Origin: Alphaproteobacteria bacterium
GTDB taxonomy: Bacteria; Pseudomonadota; Alphaproteobacteria; SP197
Reading direction: 5' to 3'
Length of the DNA stretch: 64,000 nt
Assembly (NCBI GenBank): GCA_964291415.2
Contig: OZ219918.1
Span: 480,001-544,000, forward strand
This document shows positions 35,345 through 41,173 of this stretch, piece after piece (position 1 is the first letter of the stretch; the number at the start of each line of letters is the position of its first letter). The position numbers were made by a program, and so were the translations under genes. The notes under the pieces are model-generated. The model had not been told where the DNA came from, searched no databases, and saw nothing but the letters and a program-made list of their open reading frames with translations.

Positions 35345-36643
35345 ATGACACGCACGATCAACTCGGTGGCCGTGATCGGCGCCGGAACCATGGGAACCGG
35401 AATCGCCGGCAAGTGCGCGGACGCGGGTTGCAGGGTCCTGCTCCTTGACGTGGACCGCGACACCGTGGATGCGGCGATGCACCGCATCACCGAAGGCCGC
35501 CCGCCGGCCATCGACAATCCCGACAGCACCAAACTGATCGAGACCGGCACCTTCGACGATCTGGCGAAGATCACGGACTACGACTGGATCTGCGAGGCTG
35601 TCATTGAGGATCTCGCAACCAAGCGCGACATGTTCGCGAAGCTCGAGCACTGGCGCAGCGACGGTTCGGTGATCTCCACCAACACATCGGGCATCCCGCT
35701 GCGCTCGATCACAGAAGGCATGCCCGCGAGGTTGCGCCGGGACGTCGTGGTGACACACTTCTTCAATCCCGTGAAGGTGATGAAGCTGCTGGAGATCGTT
35801 CCCGGAGAGGAGACGGCGCCGGATGTGGTCAAGGCGATGGCGGCGTTCTGCTCGACCAGGCTCGACAAGGGTGTCGTTCATGCCAAGGACACCGTGAACT
35901 TCATCGGCAACCGCATCGGCTGTTTCTGGATGCTGTCGGGCCTCCACAAGGCCAGAAAGGCGCGCCGCGAAGGCGGGTTGCAGATGGAGGAGATCGATGC
36001 CCTCATGTCGGCGCCCGTGGGGCTGCCGCCGACGGGACTCTATGGGCTGATCGATCTCATCGGCCTCGACGTGATGGACCTTGTCGGAAAGAACCTGGCG
36101 GCGAATCTCCCCGACGGCGACACGGGCCACCTCTACACGACATTCCCGCAAGAAGAGCAGGCGATGCTTGCGAGGGGCCAGCTCGGACGCAAGACGCGGG
36201 GTGGTTTCTATCGGGTCACCAGGACCGATGACGGTGAACGGCTGCGCGAGACCTTTGATCTCGACGAAGCCCGATGGCGCCCGTCGACAGCGACGGACAT
36301 TGCGGGGACTCCACGTGAACTCATGACCGCCCCGGGTGCCGCGGGTGATTTCGCCAGGGACCTCATGGGTGGTGTTCTCGCCTACGCTGCCGGCCTGGTC
36401 GGCGAGATATCCGACGACATCGTCAACATCGATCGCGCGATGCGCTGGGGGTTCGCCTGGAAGAAGGGGCCCTTCGAACTCATCGACGACATCGGACACG
36501 ACACGCTGGCCGCCATTCTCGAATCGTCGGGAGAGCCGTTGCCGAGAATGCTCCGCGTCGCAAGGGATGCCGGGGCGTCAACCTTCCACGACGGCGAACG
36601 TTTCCTTGGCCTGGATGGTCGCTGGCACGATCTCGTTGACTGA
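35345..36643 (+). CDS. 3-hydroxyacyl-CoA dehydrogenase (FadN-like N-terminal part, no hydratase domain)
   Basis: VIGAGTMG, EAVIE, STNTSGIP, HFFNP, FIGNRIG, MRWGFAWKKGPFE. Confidence 0.9.
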   Translation: MTRTINSVAVIGAGTMGTGIAGKCADAGCRVLLLDVDRDTVDAAMHRITEGRPPAIDNPDSTKLIETGTFDDLAKITDYDWICEAVIEDLATKRDMFAKLEHWRSDGSVISTNTSGIPLRSITEGMPARLRRDVVVTHFFNPVKVMKLLEIVPGEETAPDVVKAMAAFCSTRLDKGVVHAKDTVNFIGNRIGCFWMLSGLHKARKARREGGLQMEEIDALMSAPVGLPPTGLYGLIDLIGLDVMDLVGKNLAANLPDGDTGHLYTTFPQEEQAMLARGQLGRKTRGGFYRVTRTDDGERLRETFDLDEARWRPSTATDIAGTPRELMTAPGAAGDFARDLMGGVLAYAAGLVGEISDDIVNIDRAMRWGFAWKKGPFELIDDIGHDTLAAILESSGEPLPRMLRVARDAGASTFHDGERFLGLDGRWHDLVD

Positions 36644-36843
36644 GATTGCGTCATAGGGTGTTGACTTCGGTCGTTGTCTCAACCGGCCGATACCGGTGGT
36701 TCAGGGTCACCAGCGACGTATCGCAGCAGAGTTTGAGCAGATTCGCGGAGCGTTACATGCCAGACAGCGGACGTTGACCAATCGGGCCTCGTCGGGTTCC
36801 TGGTGGAAGGTCGCGATGCACTGCAGGGCGGGAGCATTCAACG

Positions 36844-37821
36844 ATGGACGATGAACTCTGGCGCGTCATGCAGGAACCCGATATCGACCATCGTCTGGCT
36901 GATGGACTGCGCTCAAATCGGAGTTTCGCGGAATGGTGGGTCGGGAGAATTCTGCCGACATTGAAGTTGGGCGATCTCGTGGAGATCAAGCCCAACTATA
37001 CGCGGGAAGAAGAGTCCTGGTCCTCACAAAGCAAACCGGCCCGGGAAACGGATCTGCACGTTGTTGCCAAGGACGCTCATGGCGATCGCTTCGCCATCCT
37101 GACCGAGAGCAAGGTCGTGGCACCGGCCAGCAAGCATCAACCCGAAGACTACTCCGCTTACGTCCGGTGGGGGGAGTCGCAGGGAATGTGGAGGCGGGGA
37201 GTCACAGTTCTCATGGCTCCAAAGGGCTACCTGGATCGACCGTCGAGCGCAGGAATGTATGACATCAAAATGAGCTATGAAGAGATTCGCGATTCGGCCC
37301 AAGCCAACGGCCTCAAGGATTTGGCATCCTACCTGGATGCCGGCATCGTTCGGCATGGCTATTCCGGATCAGCCAGAAACCCGAGTGAATTGATCGGCGG
37401 GTTTCGCGTGCGTTACTCCGATCTTCTTCGGGAAGAATACAGGCGTCTCTACGACAGTCTTTCGGGGAACACCAAGAAACAGTTCGATGCGAGTCAGCGG
37501 TGGTTCGAGTTTCGTCCACGACAGTGTCGGTTAGGGAGGGTCACTGTTCCGGGCGTTGAGGTTATCCACAAGATCTGTAACAGGGCGAAGAGGGATCAGG
37601 ATCGTTCCGCGCAGCAGTATCTGGCAGTGCATGTTCCGCGGGCCGGGTGCTACGAGAATAGTCCGCCGAACTGGAATGGGCGATATCGATGGCGTGAGAG
37701 CAAGGCGTTCTGGATTCTGGACACTCCACTGGATGCCGACGATTGGCTGTTCTTCGATGACTTCGATGCTGAGGCCGCACGACGCGTCTGGGCGAGAATG
37801 TCCGAACTGATCGAAGACTAG
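36844..37821 (+). CDS. PD-(D/E)XK nuclease superfamily protein
   Basis: ETDLHVV...AILTESKVVAPASKHQPEDY matches the D-x(n)-E-x-K...Q..Y pattern of PD-(D/E)XK nucleases. Codon usage is visibly more AT-rich than in the flanking genes. Confidence 0.7.
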   Translation: MDDELWRVMQEPDIDHRLADGLRSNRSFAEWWVGRILPTLKLGDLVEIKPNYTREEESWSSQSKPARETDLHVVAKDAHGDRFAILTESKVVAPASKHQPEDYSAYVRWGESQGMWRRGVTVLMAPKGYLDRPSSAGMYDIKMSYEEIRDSAQANGLKDLASYLDAGIVRHGYSGSARNPSELIGGFRVRYSDLLREEYRRLYDSLSGNTKKQFDASQRWFEFRPRQCRLGRVTVPGVEVIHKICNRAKRDQDRSAQQYLAVHVPRAGCYENSPPNWNGRYRWRESKAFWILDTPLDADDWLFFDDFDAEAARRVWARMSELIED

Positions 37822-37955
37822 GCGAAGGGAACACTGCGACACAGACCTGGCAGACTGGGTCAAGGGCACACGGATGCCATTGCGGCTCACAAGATGCGAA
37901 CGAAAAGTGCGGCAGGCTTCGATACCGACGATCGGGACTACGGGGTCGTACAGAC

Positions 37956-37984
37956 TTGACGCCACCTCCCAATCGGCCTACATC
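37956..37984 (+). promoter_or_regulatory. Putative sigma70 promoter for the NYN leader
   Basis: TTGACG (37956-37961), 17-bp spacer, TACATC (37979-37984). Confidence 0.55.
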
Positions 37985-37990
37985 TTGAGC

Positions 37991-38050
37991 AGTCACCCCT
38001 GTGGCTTCGACTGCAGGGCGCGGGGCCGCTTAGGCGGCCCCTGCTTTTTT
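37991..38050 (+). ncRNA. Candidate ~60-nt structured leader or small RNA ending in an intrinsic terminator
   Basis: Hairpin 1 is CCCTGTGG-CTTCGA-CTGCAGGG (37997-38018, two G-U pairs). Hairpin 2 is GGGGCCGC-TTAG-GCGGCCCC (38022-38041), followed by TGC and a T6 run (38045-38050). Confidence 0.5.
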
Positions 38051-38061
38051 GGCGGTTTCCA

Positions 38062-38685
38062 ATGCGCACATTCGTTTACGTCGATGGGTTCAATCTCTAC
38101 TACGGGGCGCTCAGGCGAACGCCGTGGAAGTGGCTGGACCTTGTCGCTCTGGCCGGAAGAGTGCTGCAGCCGCATCATCAGATCGTGACGCTTCGGTACT
38201 TTACGGCGAAGGTCTCGGAGACCGTCAGGGATCCGACCAAACCGCATCGCCAGGACAGCTACTTGCGTGCGCTGCGTGCCACGCGGCCGGAGGTCGAAGT
38301 GCATTTCGGCCACTTTCTCACCCATAGAGTGTGGATGCCGCTGGTTCGGCCGACCGGCGATCAGCACATGGTCGAGGTCTTCAAGACCGAAGAAAAGGGC
38401 ACGGATGTCAATCTTGCGGTGCACCTCCTGAACGACGCCGGGCTCGATGCCTATGACTGCGCGGTCGTCGTGAGCAACGACGGTGACCTGGCGGAGGCCA
38501 TGCGCCTTGTACGCCAACGTCACGGGAAACGCATCGGCCTGGTAAAGCCGGGCACCGGGCGGCTGTCTCAGCAGCTCAGGGAGCACGCCGATTTCTTGCG
38601 CCCGATCCGATCCAGCTACCTGCAGAACTCGCAGCTTCCGGATCCGATCCCCGGGACGAACATCAGGAAGCCAGCAGCTTGGTAA
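38062..38685 (+). CDS. NYN domain (LabA/DUF88, PIN-like) ribonuclease
   Basis: YVDGFNLYYG, RYFTA, EEKGTDVNLA, VSNDGDL. The acidic active-site residues are intact. Confidence 0.9.
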   Translation: MRTFVYVDGFNLYYGALRRTPWKWLDLVALAGRVLQPHHQIVTLRYFTAKVSETVRDPTKPHRQDSYLRALRATRPEVEVHFGHFLTHRVWMPLVRPTGDQHMVEVFKTEEKGTDVNLAVHLLNDAGLDAYDCAVVVSNDGDLAEAMRLVRQRHGKRIGLVKPGTGRLSQQLREHADFLRPIRSSYLQNSQLPDPIPGTNIRKPAAW

Positions 38686-39017
38686 GGTCCGCCATACTCG
38701 AGTACCCGACTTCCTCCTGGCGCGGCTGATGCTTGTTGATCATTGATCGCCGTCCCTGACCAGGGCGCAGCCCTCATCGAAGAGAGAGTTTGGCACCTTC
38801 CCGATCGTGTTGGCGTCGTGTCTCGGGAAGGTCAAGGTTTCGCGGGGCGGGATTGTCTGGCTGAGTTCTGACGATCTGGAACACCCGCTCCGTGCCGTCG
38901 ACTTCCGTTCTCAGCGAGTAGCGCCAGGGGGCAGGTGTCTTCATTTCCCTGCATCCGGTTCGGCTGAGGGTCGCAGAGTGCCCGAAGGGTTCCGGATTCT
39001 GCCGGATGGACCGTGAC

Positions 39018-39467
39018 TCACGGCCCGCCGGTCAGGGCGATGGCGACACCCACAGCGCCGTCCGTGGCCGGGCTGATCGTGATCAGGGCTTCCTCGAGGA
39101 CGCAGATCCGCGCTTCGCTGAAACAGGCGCCGAAGGTGACGGCGATGGCGGCCGGCTGGTGAAGGCGGCCGGGATCGAAGGGGAATGTCTCCAGAACCGG
39201 GCCGTTGAAGTAGTCGGCGTCCACCTTCACCACCCGTGGCAGTTCACCCGTCCATGGCCGGTTGTCATCGGCCGGGGCGAAGGCGACACCAAGCGTGCCG
39301 GAGAGCGTCACATCGGGAGGTGGCAGAAGGGCTATGGCGAGAGCCCTTCCCTGGTTCACGTAGGCCTCGATCCTGACGGAGGTGGCGGAAAGGATGCCGG
39401 TGACGCCGCCGGCCAGTGCCGGCGACAGGGAGACGAGAACCGCAAGGACTGCGACGACGCGCTTCAT
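39018..39467 (-). CDS. Secreted hypothetical protein with a C-x6-C pair (DsbD-N-like)
   Basis: Signal peptide MKRVVAVLAVLVSLSPALA and VTFGACFSEARICV near the C-terminus. Confidence 0.6.
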   Translation of the reverse strand: MKRVVAVLAVLVSLSPALAGGVTGILSATSVRIEAYVNQGRALAIALLPPPDVTLSGTLGVAFAPADDNRPWTGELPRVVKVDADYFNGPVLETFPFDPGRLHQPAAIAVTFGACFSEARICVLEEALITISPATDGAVGVAIALTGGP

Positions 39468-39577
39468 GTGCCGAGGATAGGACATCATCCGGAACGATCA
39501 AATGCTCCGTTTCTTGCGACTGGACAAAATGCCCTGATGGCGGCACACATCGGGTCTGATTGCACCATCAGGTCTTC

Positions 39578-41173
39578 ATGATGTCCCACGACCACGAGGT
39601 CGCCAGGCGGCGCACGTTCGCCATCATCTCCCATCCCGATGCCGGCAAGACGACGCTTACCGAAAAGCTGCTGCTGTTCGGCGGCGCCATTCAGCTTGCC
39701 GGGGCGGTCAAGGCGCGGGGCGAACGCCGCCGGGCGCGTTCCGACTGGATGAAGGTGGAACAGGAGCGCGGCATCTCGGTGACCGCATCGGTGATGAACT
39801 TCACCTACCAGGGGTGCGTCTTCAATCTGCTCGACACCCCCGGCCACGAGGACTTCAGCGAGGACACCTACAGGGTGCTGACGGCCGTCGACAGCGCAAT
39901 CATGGTGATCGATGCCGCCCGTGGCATCGAGGCCCAGACCCGAAAGCTGTTCGAGGTGTGCCGGCTCAGGGACATGCCGGTGACGACCTTCATCAACAAG
40001 ATGGATCGCGATGGACGCGATCCCTTCGATCTGATCGACGAGGTCGAACAGACACTGCAGATCGAGATGGCGCCGGCGAGCTGGCCCATCGGCATGGGGC
40101 GCGACTTCCAGGGATGCTGGGACCTGGTGCACGACCGCCTCGTTCTCATGAAGCGTGGCAAGGGAGAGACGATTGCGGACGGCATTGCCTGCGAAGGCAT
40201 CGATTCGCCCGAACTCGACACCCTGCTTCCCGGTCATGCTGTCGCGCAACTGCGCGACGAGGTCGAGATGACCCGGGAACTGATGGCTCCATTCAGTCGG
40301 CAGGACTACCTCGCAGGCAACCTCTCACCGCTCTATTTTGGCAGCGCCCTCAACAACTTCGGCGTGCGGGAACTCATCGGCGGCCTGGTGGGGAACGCTC
40401 CGCCGCCCGGTTCGCGGCCAGCGCTTGAACGCACGGTTGAACCGGCCACGCACGAGGTCACCGGCTTTGTCTTCAAGATCCAGGCCAACACGGACCCGCG
40501 CCATCGTGACCGGATCGCCTTCGTTCGCCTGGTGTCGGGGCATTTCCGGCGAGGCATGAAACTGAAGCACTCGCGGACCGGCAAGCACATCATCATGCAC
40601 AGCCCGCAGGTCTTCCTGGCGCAGGATCGTGAACTGGCCGACGAGGCCTTTGCCGGCGACATCGTCGGTGTCCCCAATCACGGCAATCTCCATATCGGCG
40701 ACACGCTCTCGGAGGAGGGAGATCTCACGTTTACCGGCATTCCGAGTTTCGCGCCTGAACACCTGCGGAACGTGCGCGCTGCGGATCCCCTCAAGTCAAA
40801 GCACCTCGGTCGCGCCCTGCAGCAGCTGGCCCAGGAGGGCGCCGCCCATGTCTTCCGACCCGTGATGGACTCCGATTGGGTGGTGGGGGTCATGGGGCCC
40901 CTGCAGTTCGATGTCCTCGCCGACCGGATTCGCAGCGAGTACGAGGTTCCGGTGCGGTTCGAGTCCTCGGGCATCCATACGGCACGCTGGCTCGACGCGC
41001 CCTCGGAGCGGATGATCCGCACATTCGCCGACCGCAACCGCGGGGCGATGGCCACCGACCACGTCGGCCGGCCGGTGTTCCTGGCGCGCAACGCCTGGCA
41101 TCTCGACCGGGCCATCAGCGATGCGCCGGATCTTGCCTTCCGGGATGTCCAGGAACACGTTCATGGCGCCTGA
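39578..41173 (+). CDS. prfC: Peptide chain release factor 3
   Basis: RRTFAIISHPDAGKTT, DTPGHEDFSEDTYR, NKMD, GSALNNFGV, HRDRIAF. Confidence 0.97.
   Translation: MMSHDHEVARRRTFAIISHPDAGKTTLTEKLLLFGGAIQLAGAVKARGERRRARSDWMKVEQERGISVTASVMNFTYQGCVFNLLDTPGHEDFSEDTYRVLTAVDSAIMVIDAARGIEAQTRKLFEVCRLRDMPVTTFINKMDRDGRDPFDLIDEVEQTLQIEMAPASWPIGMGRDFQGCWDLVHDRLVLMKRGKGETIADGIACEGIDSPELDTLLPGHAVAQLRDEVEMTRELMAPFSRQDYLAGNLSPLYFGSALNNFGVRELIGGLVGNAPPPGSRPALERTVEPATHEVTGFVFKIQANTDPRHRDRIAFVRLVSGHFRRGMKLKHSRTGKHIIMHSPQVFLAQDRELADEAFAGDIVGVPNHGNLHIGDTLSEEGDLTFTGIPSFAPEHLRNVRAADPLKSKHLGRALQQLAQEGAAHVFRPVMDSDWVVGVMGPLQFDVLADRIRSEYEVPVRFESSGIHTARWLDAPSERMIRTFADRNRGAMATDHVGRPVFLARNAWHLDRAISDAPDLAFRDVQEHVHGA

Follow-up and report, generated by a model that had tools for sequence, protein, structure and literature searches.

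A conserved two-hairpin RNA encoded beside an NYN-domain ribonuclease: a candidate type III-like toxin-antitoxin or defence module

In a 64,000-nucleotide (nt) stretch of an alphaproteobacterial genome (GTDB lineage Alphaproteobacteria, SP197; assembly GCA_964291415.2, contig OZ219918.1, positions 480,001 to 544,000), a gene for a predicted NYN-domain ribonuclease is preceded by a short structured RNA that appears to be its constant companion. This whole stretch is called the window here; its own numbering is used, and all the features of the locus lie on its forward strand. The ribonuclease, of 207 amino acids, is encoded at 38062-38685, and the open reading frame (ORF) before it, of 325 amino acids, at 36844-37821. 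The 240-nt gap between the two holds promoter boxes, two hairpins and a run of six U residues. Read from the sequence, the boxes are TTGACG (-35, 37956-37961) and, after a 17-nt spacer, TACATC (-10, 37979-37984). The small RNA gene, delimited at 37987-38050 by a covariance-model match, has a predicted start at about 37990-37992 and a 3' end in the U-run, which would give a transcript of about 60 nt. Hairpin 1 (37997-38018) has a stem of 8 base pairs (bp) and a 6-nt loop, with the 5' arm CCCTGTGG (37997-38004), the loop CTTCGA (CUUCGA in the RNA, 38005-38010) and the 3' arm CTGCAGGG (38011-38018), all read from the sequence. A single linker base separates it from hairpin 2, an intrinsic terminator (38020-38050) of 10 pairs with a UUAG loop: its core, read as GGGGCCGC / TTAG / GCGGCCCC at 38022-38041, is extended by two outer pairs (38020-38021 with 38043-38044) that leave U38042 bulged, and the T6 (U6) run follows directly at 38045-38050. 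A spacer of 11 nt (38051-38061), holding a weak GGCGG ribosome-binding stretch and no room for a promoter, then leads to the ATG at 38062.

A first reading of the window, made from its letters alone and called here the original prediction, had noticed most of this, and its description of the leader stands. The stem-loop with a CUUCGA loop is found again in the minimum-free-energy fold of the entire 240-nt spacer, which includes both hairpins; the strong terminator, with its 8-bp stem (8/8 GC pairs) and T-run, is called by a terminator scan and does end 11 nt before the start codon of NYN; and there is indeed no clear Shine-Dalgarno sequence, the only candidate being the GGCGG at -11 to -7. The sigma70-like promoter placed at 37956-37984 fares less simply. 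Its hexamers and their 17-nt spacing are there, but a generic sigma-70 scan of 36500-39600 called no promoter at all, since only 3 of the 6 letters of the -10 box agree with TATAAT. The promoter is nevertheless credible because the position of this box fits the spacing of the family: it ends 12 nt short of hairpin 1, which is the most frequent distance where relatives have strong boxes. Since the gap between terminator and NYN is too short for a second promoter, NYN would be transcribed in this layout only by read-through of the terminator. The DNA of the locus is single-copy in the window's genome.

The same arrangement recurs far outside the window. NYN matches were present in 12 of 61 related genomes, and the 100 nt upstream of 11 related-genome NYN loci (protein identity 41-95%, several being fragments) follow one common layout behind differing upstream genes. 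In a wider, protein-first sample, 595 NYN relatives were collected from contigs representing one genome per species and the best 80 loci were kept; the motif, searched with covariance model R1, stands upstream of NYN in all of these 80, at 5-37 nt from its start (median 13, 79 loci). Conservation of the leader among homologs, which the original prediction had named as a check on itself, was thus found. At the window site the model scores 75.6 bits (E=1.5e-22), the sole strong match in the 4.44-Mb genome.

Covariation in this family is extensive. An alignment named A2 was built from 55 non-identical motif sequences, 54 from the loci with the window copy as first row; the loci sequences were picked by a regular expression that fixes part of the loop, so that loop invariance inside A2 is circular, and 6 of the 61 listed are not included. 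On the two-helix structure 95.9% of its 974 cells are paired, and compensatory (two-sided) changes occur in 15 of the 18 pairs, 6 of 8 in hairpin 1 and 9 of 10 in hairpin 2. None of 500 shuffles reaches the observed value on any of five measures, and pairing falls to 42-60% when the pair partners are slid along the alignment. RNAalifold independently recovers both helices, with compensatory changes in 14 of its 15 predicted pairs, so that the covarying two-hairpin motif for which the original prediction had proposed to look is there. Among the 974 paired cells, G-U or U-G combinations number 82 against 7 for A-C or C-A, and this excess indicates that the fold belongs to RNA of the NYN-sense strand; the columns of the T-run are kept in 51-55 of the 55 sequences. 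When the sequences are taken from the model-based alignment, 60 of 80 homolog loci have YUUCGA as the loop; together with the 5' AAC..CCC tail, this loop forms the conserved unpaired part of an RNA whose unpaired segments are of about 5-6 nt each. Hairpin 1 is a probable protein-recognition element. Rfam 15, a scan of which had also been suggested, holds nothing that matches the RNA, either at E<=10 in the window region or at E<=0.1 in 10 related loci; its matches elsewhere in those 10 loci were to RNAI, tRNA and weak microRNA and small RNA (sRNA) families below gathering score. Taken on its sequence record, this RNA is a conserved structured gene, far from anything that chance would produce.

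The promoter signals and the placement of the RNA point to a transcription unit distinct from the NYN gene. A -35/-10 pair matching at least 9 of 12 consensus positions occurs in 42 of 100 non-identical upstream regions and in 2 of 98 control regions situated 200 nt further upstream, and 30 of the 42 strong-box regions have 11-14 nt between the end of the -10 box and hairpin 1. A TAnnTTTG box lies 24-27 nt before hairpin 1 in six loci and further upstream in three more; five of the six carry titles of Bacteroidota, Ignavibacteria/Ignavibacterium or Planctomycetales, and we take this box to be the promoter type of those loci. In the Mycobacterium abscessus prophage prophiGD43A-1 the RNA (48.3 bits) follows the NYN stop codon immediately but is encoded on the other strand, with promoter-like boxes of its own upstream; this convergent arrangement is repeated in three IMG/VR copies of the prophage. 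A second actinobacterial lineage, represented by a Paenarthrobacter plasmid with an NYN 51% identical to the M. abscessus prophage protein, likewise has a convergent RNA downstream of NYN (44.7 bits). In L146, a viral contig, RNA and NYN are divergent, and promoter boxes of the form TTGACA-17-TATCGT stand before the RNA. In these three lineages a cis-acting leader is therefore no explanation, and a trans-acting partner fits. Tied to the NYN family in three geometries, the RNA is, as predicted from these signals, a separate gene under its own promoter.

It is also instructive to see which partner survives without the other. For an RNA-first sample, one pattern scan of metagenome contigs gave at least 120 stretches, of which 80 were fetched; 66 of these are true motifs at 43 bits or more, and the other 14 are chance pattern matches inside genes. 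The NYN status of each locus was read with an NYN profile over all six frames: 32 have a full NYN downstream, 10 a broken or fragmentary one, 17 no NYN anywhere in the locus, and 7 too little downstream DNA to judge, so that 32 of the 59 assessable RNA copies have kept an intact NYN. Orphan RNAs reach the top R1 scores (84.5, 84.0 and 80.8 bits). An intact NYN lacking the RNA was seen nowhere at about 40% identity or more, in the 80 genome loci and the viral loci, distant homologs being partly resolved. In one related genome (G004), the syntenic locus still has its promoter and an undamaged RNA (63 bits), but of NYN only the first 11 codons are left and of the upstream gene 33; in another (G010), a 60-bit RNA is followed by scraps of NYN, and L006, L008, L009, L014, L016 and L035 are further remnants. 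Such an asymmetry of loss is the pattern that would be expected of a costly nuclease with an RNA antidote.

Some orphan copies have other neighbours. In L053 (5515-5578) and L054 (2184-2246) an orphan RNA lies downstream of an intact module, and about 150 nt after it comes a conserved small ORF starting MSQVAENDELIAR..., with its own promoter-like sequence. Two metagenomic orphans are followed directly by ORFs with good ribosome-binding sites, one of 69 amino acids that looks by eye like a ParD-type antitoxin (L234) and one of 56 amino acids (L212). The RNA-plus-terminator cassette may sometimes stand in front of other genes.

The protein half of the pair belongs to a recognizable family. It matches Pfam NYN (PF01936) with E=3.1e-10 and 41.2 bits, against a gathering cut-off of 24.2, PHROG family phrog_7929, of unknown function, with E=1.3e-55, and the PADLOC model HEC-09 with E=9.5e-45, residues 2-207 lying on profile positions 3-202 of 203; this full-length match makes HEC-09 the same protein family as the window NYN. 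NCBIfam has no family for NYN or for the upstream 325-amino-acid ORF, and a search of PDB sequences with NYN gave no match at E<=1. Five residues (D8, N11, E111, D115 and N139) are invariant in 53 homologs, in which D140, S141, D142 and the C-terminal tail are nearly so. The catalytic residues, among them the acidic ones that the original prediction had called intact, are in place, and ribonuclease activity is predicted. An AlphaFold2 model built with 53 sequences (mean predicted local distance difference test, pLDDT, 95.1; predicted template modelling score, pTM, 0.89) has a long beta-hairpin at residues 84-112. The best Foldseek neighbours are the LabA-like VPA0982 (2qip) and the NYN domains of MARF1 (5yaa, 6fdl), with E=3e-8 to 6.8e-5, probability 1.00 and identity of 13-20% over six chains of these entries; the window NYN differs from them by its long beta-hairpin and its conserved C-terminal tail. 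We know of no partner RNA for the VPA0982 or MARF1 NYN proteins.

No gene other than that of the RNA accompanies NYN with any constancy. Among the nearest ORFs flanking 58 loci to left and right, 116 in all, no common family emerges that could be a conserved protein partner, and the statement that no protein antitoxin is adjacent thus holds beyond the window. These ORFs include arginase, topoisomerase, amidase, integrases (4 loci), a TrwC relaxase and transposases, as well as DNA methylases, Mrr, a Schlafen-like ATPase and FitA antitoxins. The upstream 325-amino-acid ORF of the window has no match in Pfam, NCBIfam, PHROG or PADLOC, and falls among PD-(D/E)XK (PDDEXK_4) clusters of the ESM Atlas with a score of 0.96. 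It was considered as a component of the system and rejected: it adjoins NYN in 3 of 61 related genomes (G000, G006, G019), with the 33-codon remnant in G004, and weaker matches to it (26-31% identity) exist in G007, G049 and G050. Together with the module it may make a small two-gene island. The window's genome contains, in addition, a second NYN-like stretch (G000:C4:362770-363126, or L018; 32% identity over residues 65-183, E=1.3e-4), at which model R1 finds no RNA.

Two further ideas about the RNA were set aside. Against the spacer and the first 100 or so nucleotides of the NYN messenger RNA (mRNA), it shows no excess complementarity (mean z 0.04 for duplex energies against shuffles, 1 of 81 loci below -2), and an antisense role of type I is unsupported. 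A guide RNA was rejected, the RNA having no variable single-stranded segment.

The family is widespread. Of 6556 candidates from a protein search, 5891 lay at E<=0.001, and most have a length of exactly 207 amino acids. By record title, the 80 loci that carry both RNA and NYN belong to Alpha-, Beta- and Gammaproteobacteria (including Legionella and Polynucleobacter), Binatia, Acidobacteriota, Longimicrobiales, Bacteroidota, Ignavibacteria, Desulfobacterota, Nitrospinota, Planctomycetales, Omnitrophota and Atribacterota, about ten phylum-level groups in all. Mobile DNA is prominent. On viral contigs the RNA is found at E<=0.05 in 36 of 74 loci, that is, beside nearly all NYNs of at least 40% identity, and 6 of 10 more distant viral homologs have weak R1 matches (12-21 bits) in the same position. 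NYN homologs also occur in prophages and in 455 plasmid records, some of them plasmids of only 3.4-4.6 kb; a Leptospira plasmid carries the R1 motif at 38 bits. Among 5426 complete genomes of Escherichia coli, 10 have a locus of the E. coli plasmid type, and in each of these it lies on a plasmid. Four small ColE1-type plasmids, namely L106 (E. coli/Serratia, 3461 bp), L111, L112 and L115, have the NYN module within a few hundred bases of RNAI, the gene of replication control, and the annotation of the 3.4-kb one lists two genes only, NYN and a VbhA-family antitoxin.

Moving along the family, the RNA changes in number and in kind. Relatives carry two to four tandem RNA units, the repeated unit being of the hairpin-1 type. 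Two full units stand in a row in a metagenome-assembled genome of Desulfonema limicola (L072) and in L135, the first without a proper U-run. In L072 a tRNA gene (2633-2703) lies directly upstream of the two-unit array, which suggests that the module was inserted at a tRNA-linked island. In L059 (2376-2989) the duplication is triple, with a period of about 273 nt that spans promoter, RNA and an N-terminal fragment of NYN, and only the last of the three copies runs into a full NYN gene. On the 4.6-kb ColE1-type plasmids of E. coli (L111) the order is a promoter-like stretch, repeat units, a strong terminator, GGAG and the NYN start; the repeat there is a 33-nt unit (an 18-nt hairpin and a linker), in 2.6 near-identical copies followed by diverged units, and the whole has the standard arrangement of a type III locus. 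The NYN of these plasmids is 34% identical to the M. abscessus prophage protein and matches HEC-09 with E=2.6e-34. A Phaeobacter plasmid has the same hairpin type before its terminator, and plasmids of Klebsiella, Xanthomonas, Aeromonas and Photobacterium have structured stretches of other kinds, in each case closed by a strong terminator immediately ahead of NYN. Hairpins of a second type, longer in the stem and with GUG-type loops, were seen in L007, L008, L014, L016, L110, L111 and L113, where they accompany a different NYN clade (34-60% identity); in the Granulicella plasmid among these (L110) the R1 match is just 8.4 bits and a different hairpin and terminator are visible by eye upstream of NYN. 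The RNA type seems to follow the protein clade, though relatedness confounds this comparison.

Known systems provide a frame for these observations. The type III systems ToxIN, CptIN and TenpIN, as presented by Blower et al. (2012; PMC3401426), begin with a promoter and a non-coding RNA, followed by an intrinsic terminator and the ORF of a ribonuclease; they have no protein antitoxin and are borne by plasmids and prophages. The module studied here, with its predicted ribonuclease, resembles them in each of these respects. As in these systems, the RNA lies beside the putative toxin gene with promoter signals of its own and an intrinsic terminator before the ORF, and in relatives it is made of short tandem units, of 33 nt on the E. 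coli plasmids, in two to four copies. It differs in that the window RNA is one two-hairpin unit and no tandem repeat, which is found in L111, L072 and L135, and in that the RNA may be convergent or divergent. The original prediction had entered the tandem repeats of type III RNAs as a reservation: this stands for the single unit of the window but not for relatives with two to four. ToxN, CptN and TenpN differ again in their protein, for the fold here is NYN (PIN-like), with NYN as the only Pfam match and HEC-09 and NYN as the PADLOC ones. A second parallel is AbiF(Cd)-RCd22 of Clostridioides difficile, described by Saunier et al. (2025; PMC12373285): a toxic RNA-targeting protein has beside it a structured non-coding RNA, itself bearing conserved motifs, which acts in cis and in trans through direct contact with the protein. 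That protein is of the Abi_2/AbiD/F family, not NYN, and the RNAs are unrelated (no Rfam match here). Type II systems of the VapBC kind combine a PIN-like metal-dependent ribonuclease toxin on mobile DNA with an adjacent protein antitoxin. The module shares with them a PIN-like ribonuclease on mobile DNA, but no conserved neighbour exists among its 116 flanking ORFs. Type I systems differ in that the RNA shows no excess complementarity to the NYN mRNA here, an antisense overlap being possible only in the rare convergent layout.

As to the protein family itself, Payne et al. (bioRxiv 10.1101/2024.01.29.577857) describe HEC-09 as a single protein, an NYN/MARF1-like putative ribonuclease embedded in Hma defence loci, and the terms 'non-coding' and 'ncRNA' are absent from the main text; later papers, in their accessible parts, list HEC-09 only as an unvalidated candidate. 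A full-text literature search, with subscription-only papers and supplements outside its scope, gave no description of this RNA or of any RNA partner of NYN or HEC-09. The 'undescribed system' of the original prediction must accordingly be qualified: the protein family is already catalogued, and novelty appears to lie in the RNA, in its pairing with NYN as a two-part module and in the reading of that module as type III-like.

We favour, with moderate confidence, the view that the RNA at 37987-38050 and NYN form an autonomous two-part module, a type III-like toxin-antitoxin or defence system. The original prediction had suggested a reading of this kind, and the comparisons made here support it. 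The promoter would make the 60-nt RNA in excess, with most transcripts stopping at the terminator and rare read-through yielding the NYN mRNA. The RNA would bind the NYN protein and hold it inactive, chiefly through the YUUCGA loop of hairpin 1 and the 5' AAC..CCC tail. Were the supply of RNA to fail, through shut-off of transcription by a phage or loss of the plasmid or island, the RNA would decay faster than the protein, and freed NYN would cleave cellular or phage RNA and stop growth. In relatives with two to four units, NYN or a host ribonuclease could cut the precursor into units. Several points weigh against this reading. The window's RNA consists of one unit rather than an array of repeats. 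In the phage assays of Payne et al. (10.1101/2024.01.29.577857), HEC-09 was cloned together with its own promoter region and did not protect against the phages used. Target size (about 60 against 620 nt) and recent deletions would by themselves produce part of the asymmetry of loss, and the search pattern of the RNA-first sample favours well-conserved RNAs; the 17 of 59 RNA copies without NYN could also mean that the RNA has a function of its own. Finally, the convergent layout could work by antisense pairing with the 3' end of a read-through NYN transcript.

Other explanations have to be weighed with the same facts in mind. The tight linkage, the trans geometries and the covariation would fit equally well an RNA that is an obligate cofactor, scaffold or preferred substrate of NYN, not its inhibitor, in a working ribonucleoprotein whose nuclease it might activate, target or stabilise, or as a product that NYN matures; the conserved loop and tail show specific recognition, not its sign, and the lack of a phage-defence phenotype of HEC-09 cloned with its native upstream region would be in line with such a role. 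Yet all the unpaired parts are conserved, which leaves no variable guide stretch; the top-scoring orphans and the NYN-less copies are hard to explain if the RNA is useless alone; and a terminator and multi-unit arrays that push RNA above protein typify antidotes, not 1:1 cofactors. We regard this as a rather unlikely alternative, if one to be taken seriously. Less probable still is that the element is a mere expression leader, a promoter with a leaky terminator acting as an attenuator, perhaps bound or cut by NYN, in which the free RNA has no role. The dominant layout, where NYN can be transcribed only through the terminator, speaks for such a leader, which the original prediction had named as its alternative, but in three lineages the RNA lies outside the NYN transcript, no antiterminator pairing with downstream sequence emerges from the complementarity scores given above, hairpin 1 and its loop are conserved far beyond the needs of a terminator, and promoter and RNA remain intact where NYN has been deleted.

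A 5' hairpin followed by a terminator with a U-tail is the usual form of Hfq-type sRNAs. The RNA has this form, many copies of it exist without NYN, and a convergent copy would be antisense to any read-through NYN transcript, so one may picture the RNA as an independent regulator that acts by base pairing to repress the mRNA of NYN or further targets, either as an sRNA or as a type I-like antisense RNA, and that merely rides along with NYN on the same mobile DNA. We hold this to be very improbable: the 81 loci show no excess complementarity to the 5' region of NYN, its single-stranded parts measure no more than about 5-6 nt, and a linkage of 5-37 nt kept through 50% protein divergence, many phyla and unrelated neighbours is far tighter than hitch-hiking would give. 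That the hairpin is a product of chance, or serves the upstream PD-(D/E)XK-like gene as its terminator and nothing more, is a thought that its position invites, 200 nt past the stop codon of that gene, whose transcripts it would also end. The likelihood of this is negligible: that gene is present in 3 of 61 genomes and as the G004 remnant and absent from the other NYN loci, where upstream genes differ, whereas the RNA accompanies NYN in 80 of 80 loci and matches its model in the window with the E-value already given.

Beyond the locus, it is an evenly balanced proposition whether HEC-09-type NYNs and their hairpin RNAs make up a large unrecognised superfamily of type III toxin-antitoxin or abortive-infection modules. 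Such a superfamily would combine a new toxin fold with new RNA antitoxins, from a single two-hairpin unit up to four-unit arrays. It would take in prophages, the small plasmids of ColE1 type in E. coli and Klebsiella, and phylum-level groups to the number of about ten or more, and its orphan RNAs would serve as anti-addiction immunity against incoming NYN elements. More speculative, and in our opinion doubtful, is the idea that hairpin 1, with its 8-9-bp stem, short 5' leader and YUUCGA loop, which we take to resemble a T-loop, is a decoy for a tRNA-like substrate of the nuclease. If the module does work as proposed, it would add to the type III systems a family far larger than most (the 5891 proteins and 455 plasmid records reported above) and bring to them a different nuclease fold; it would also supply the missing second component of HEC-09, a defence candidate that is still unvalidated, and define a new and strongly covarying RNA family that is not in Rfam 15. 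NYN genes that are cloned, tested or annotated without the 60-nt RNA may then mislead. The same architecture on 3.4-4.6-kb plasmids of E. coli would provide a tractable model in which to study it.

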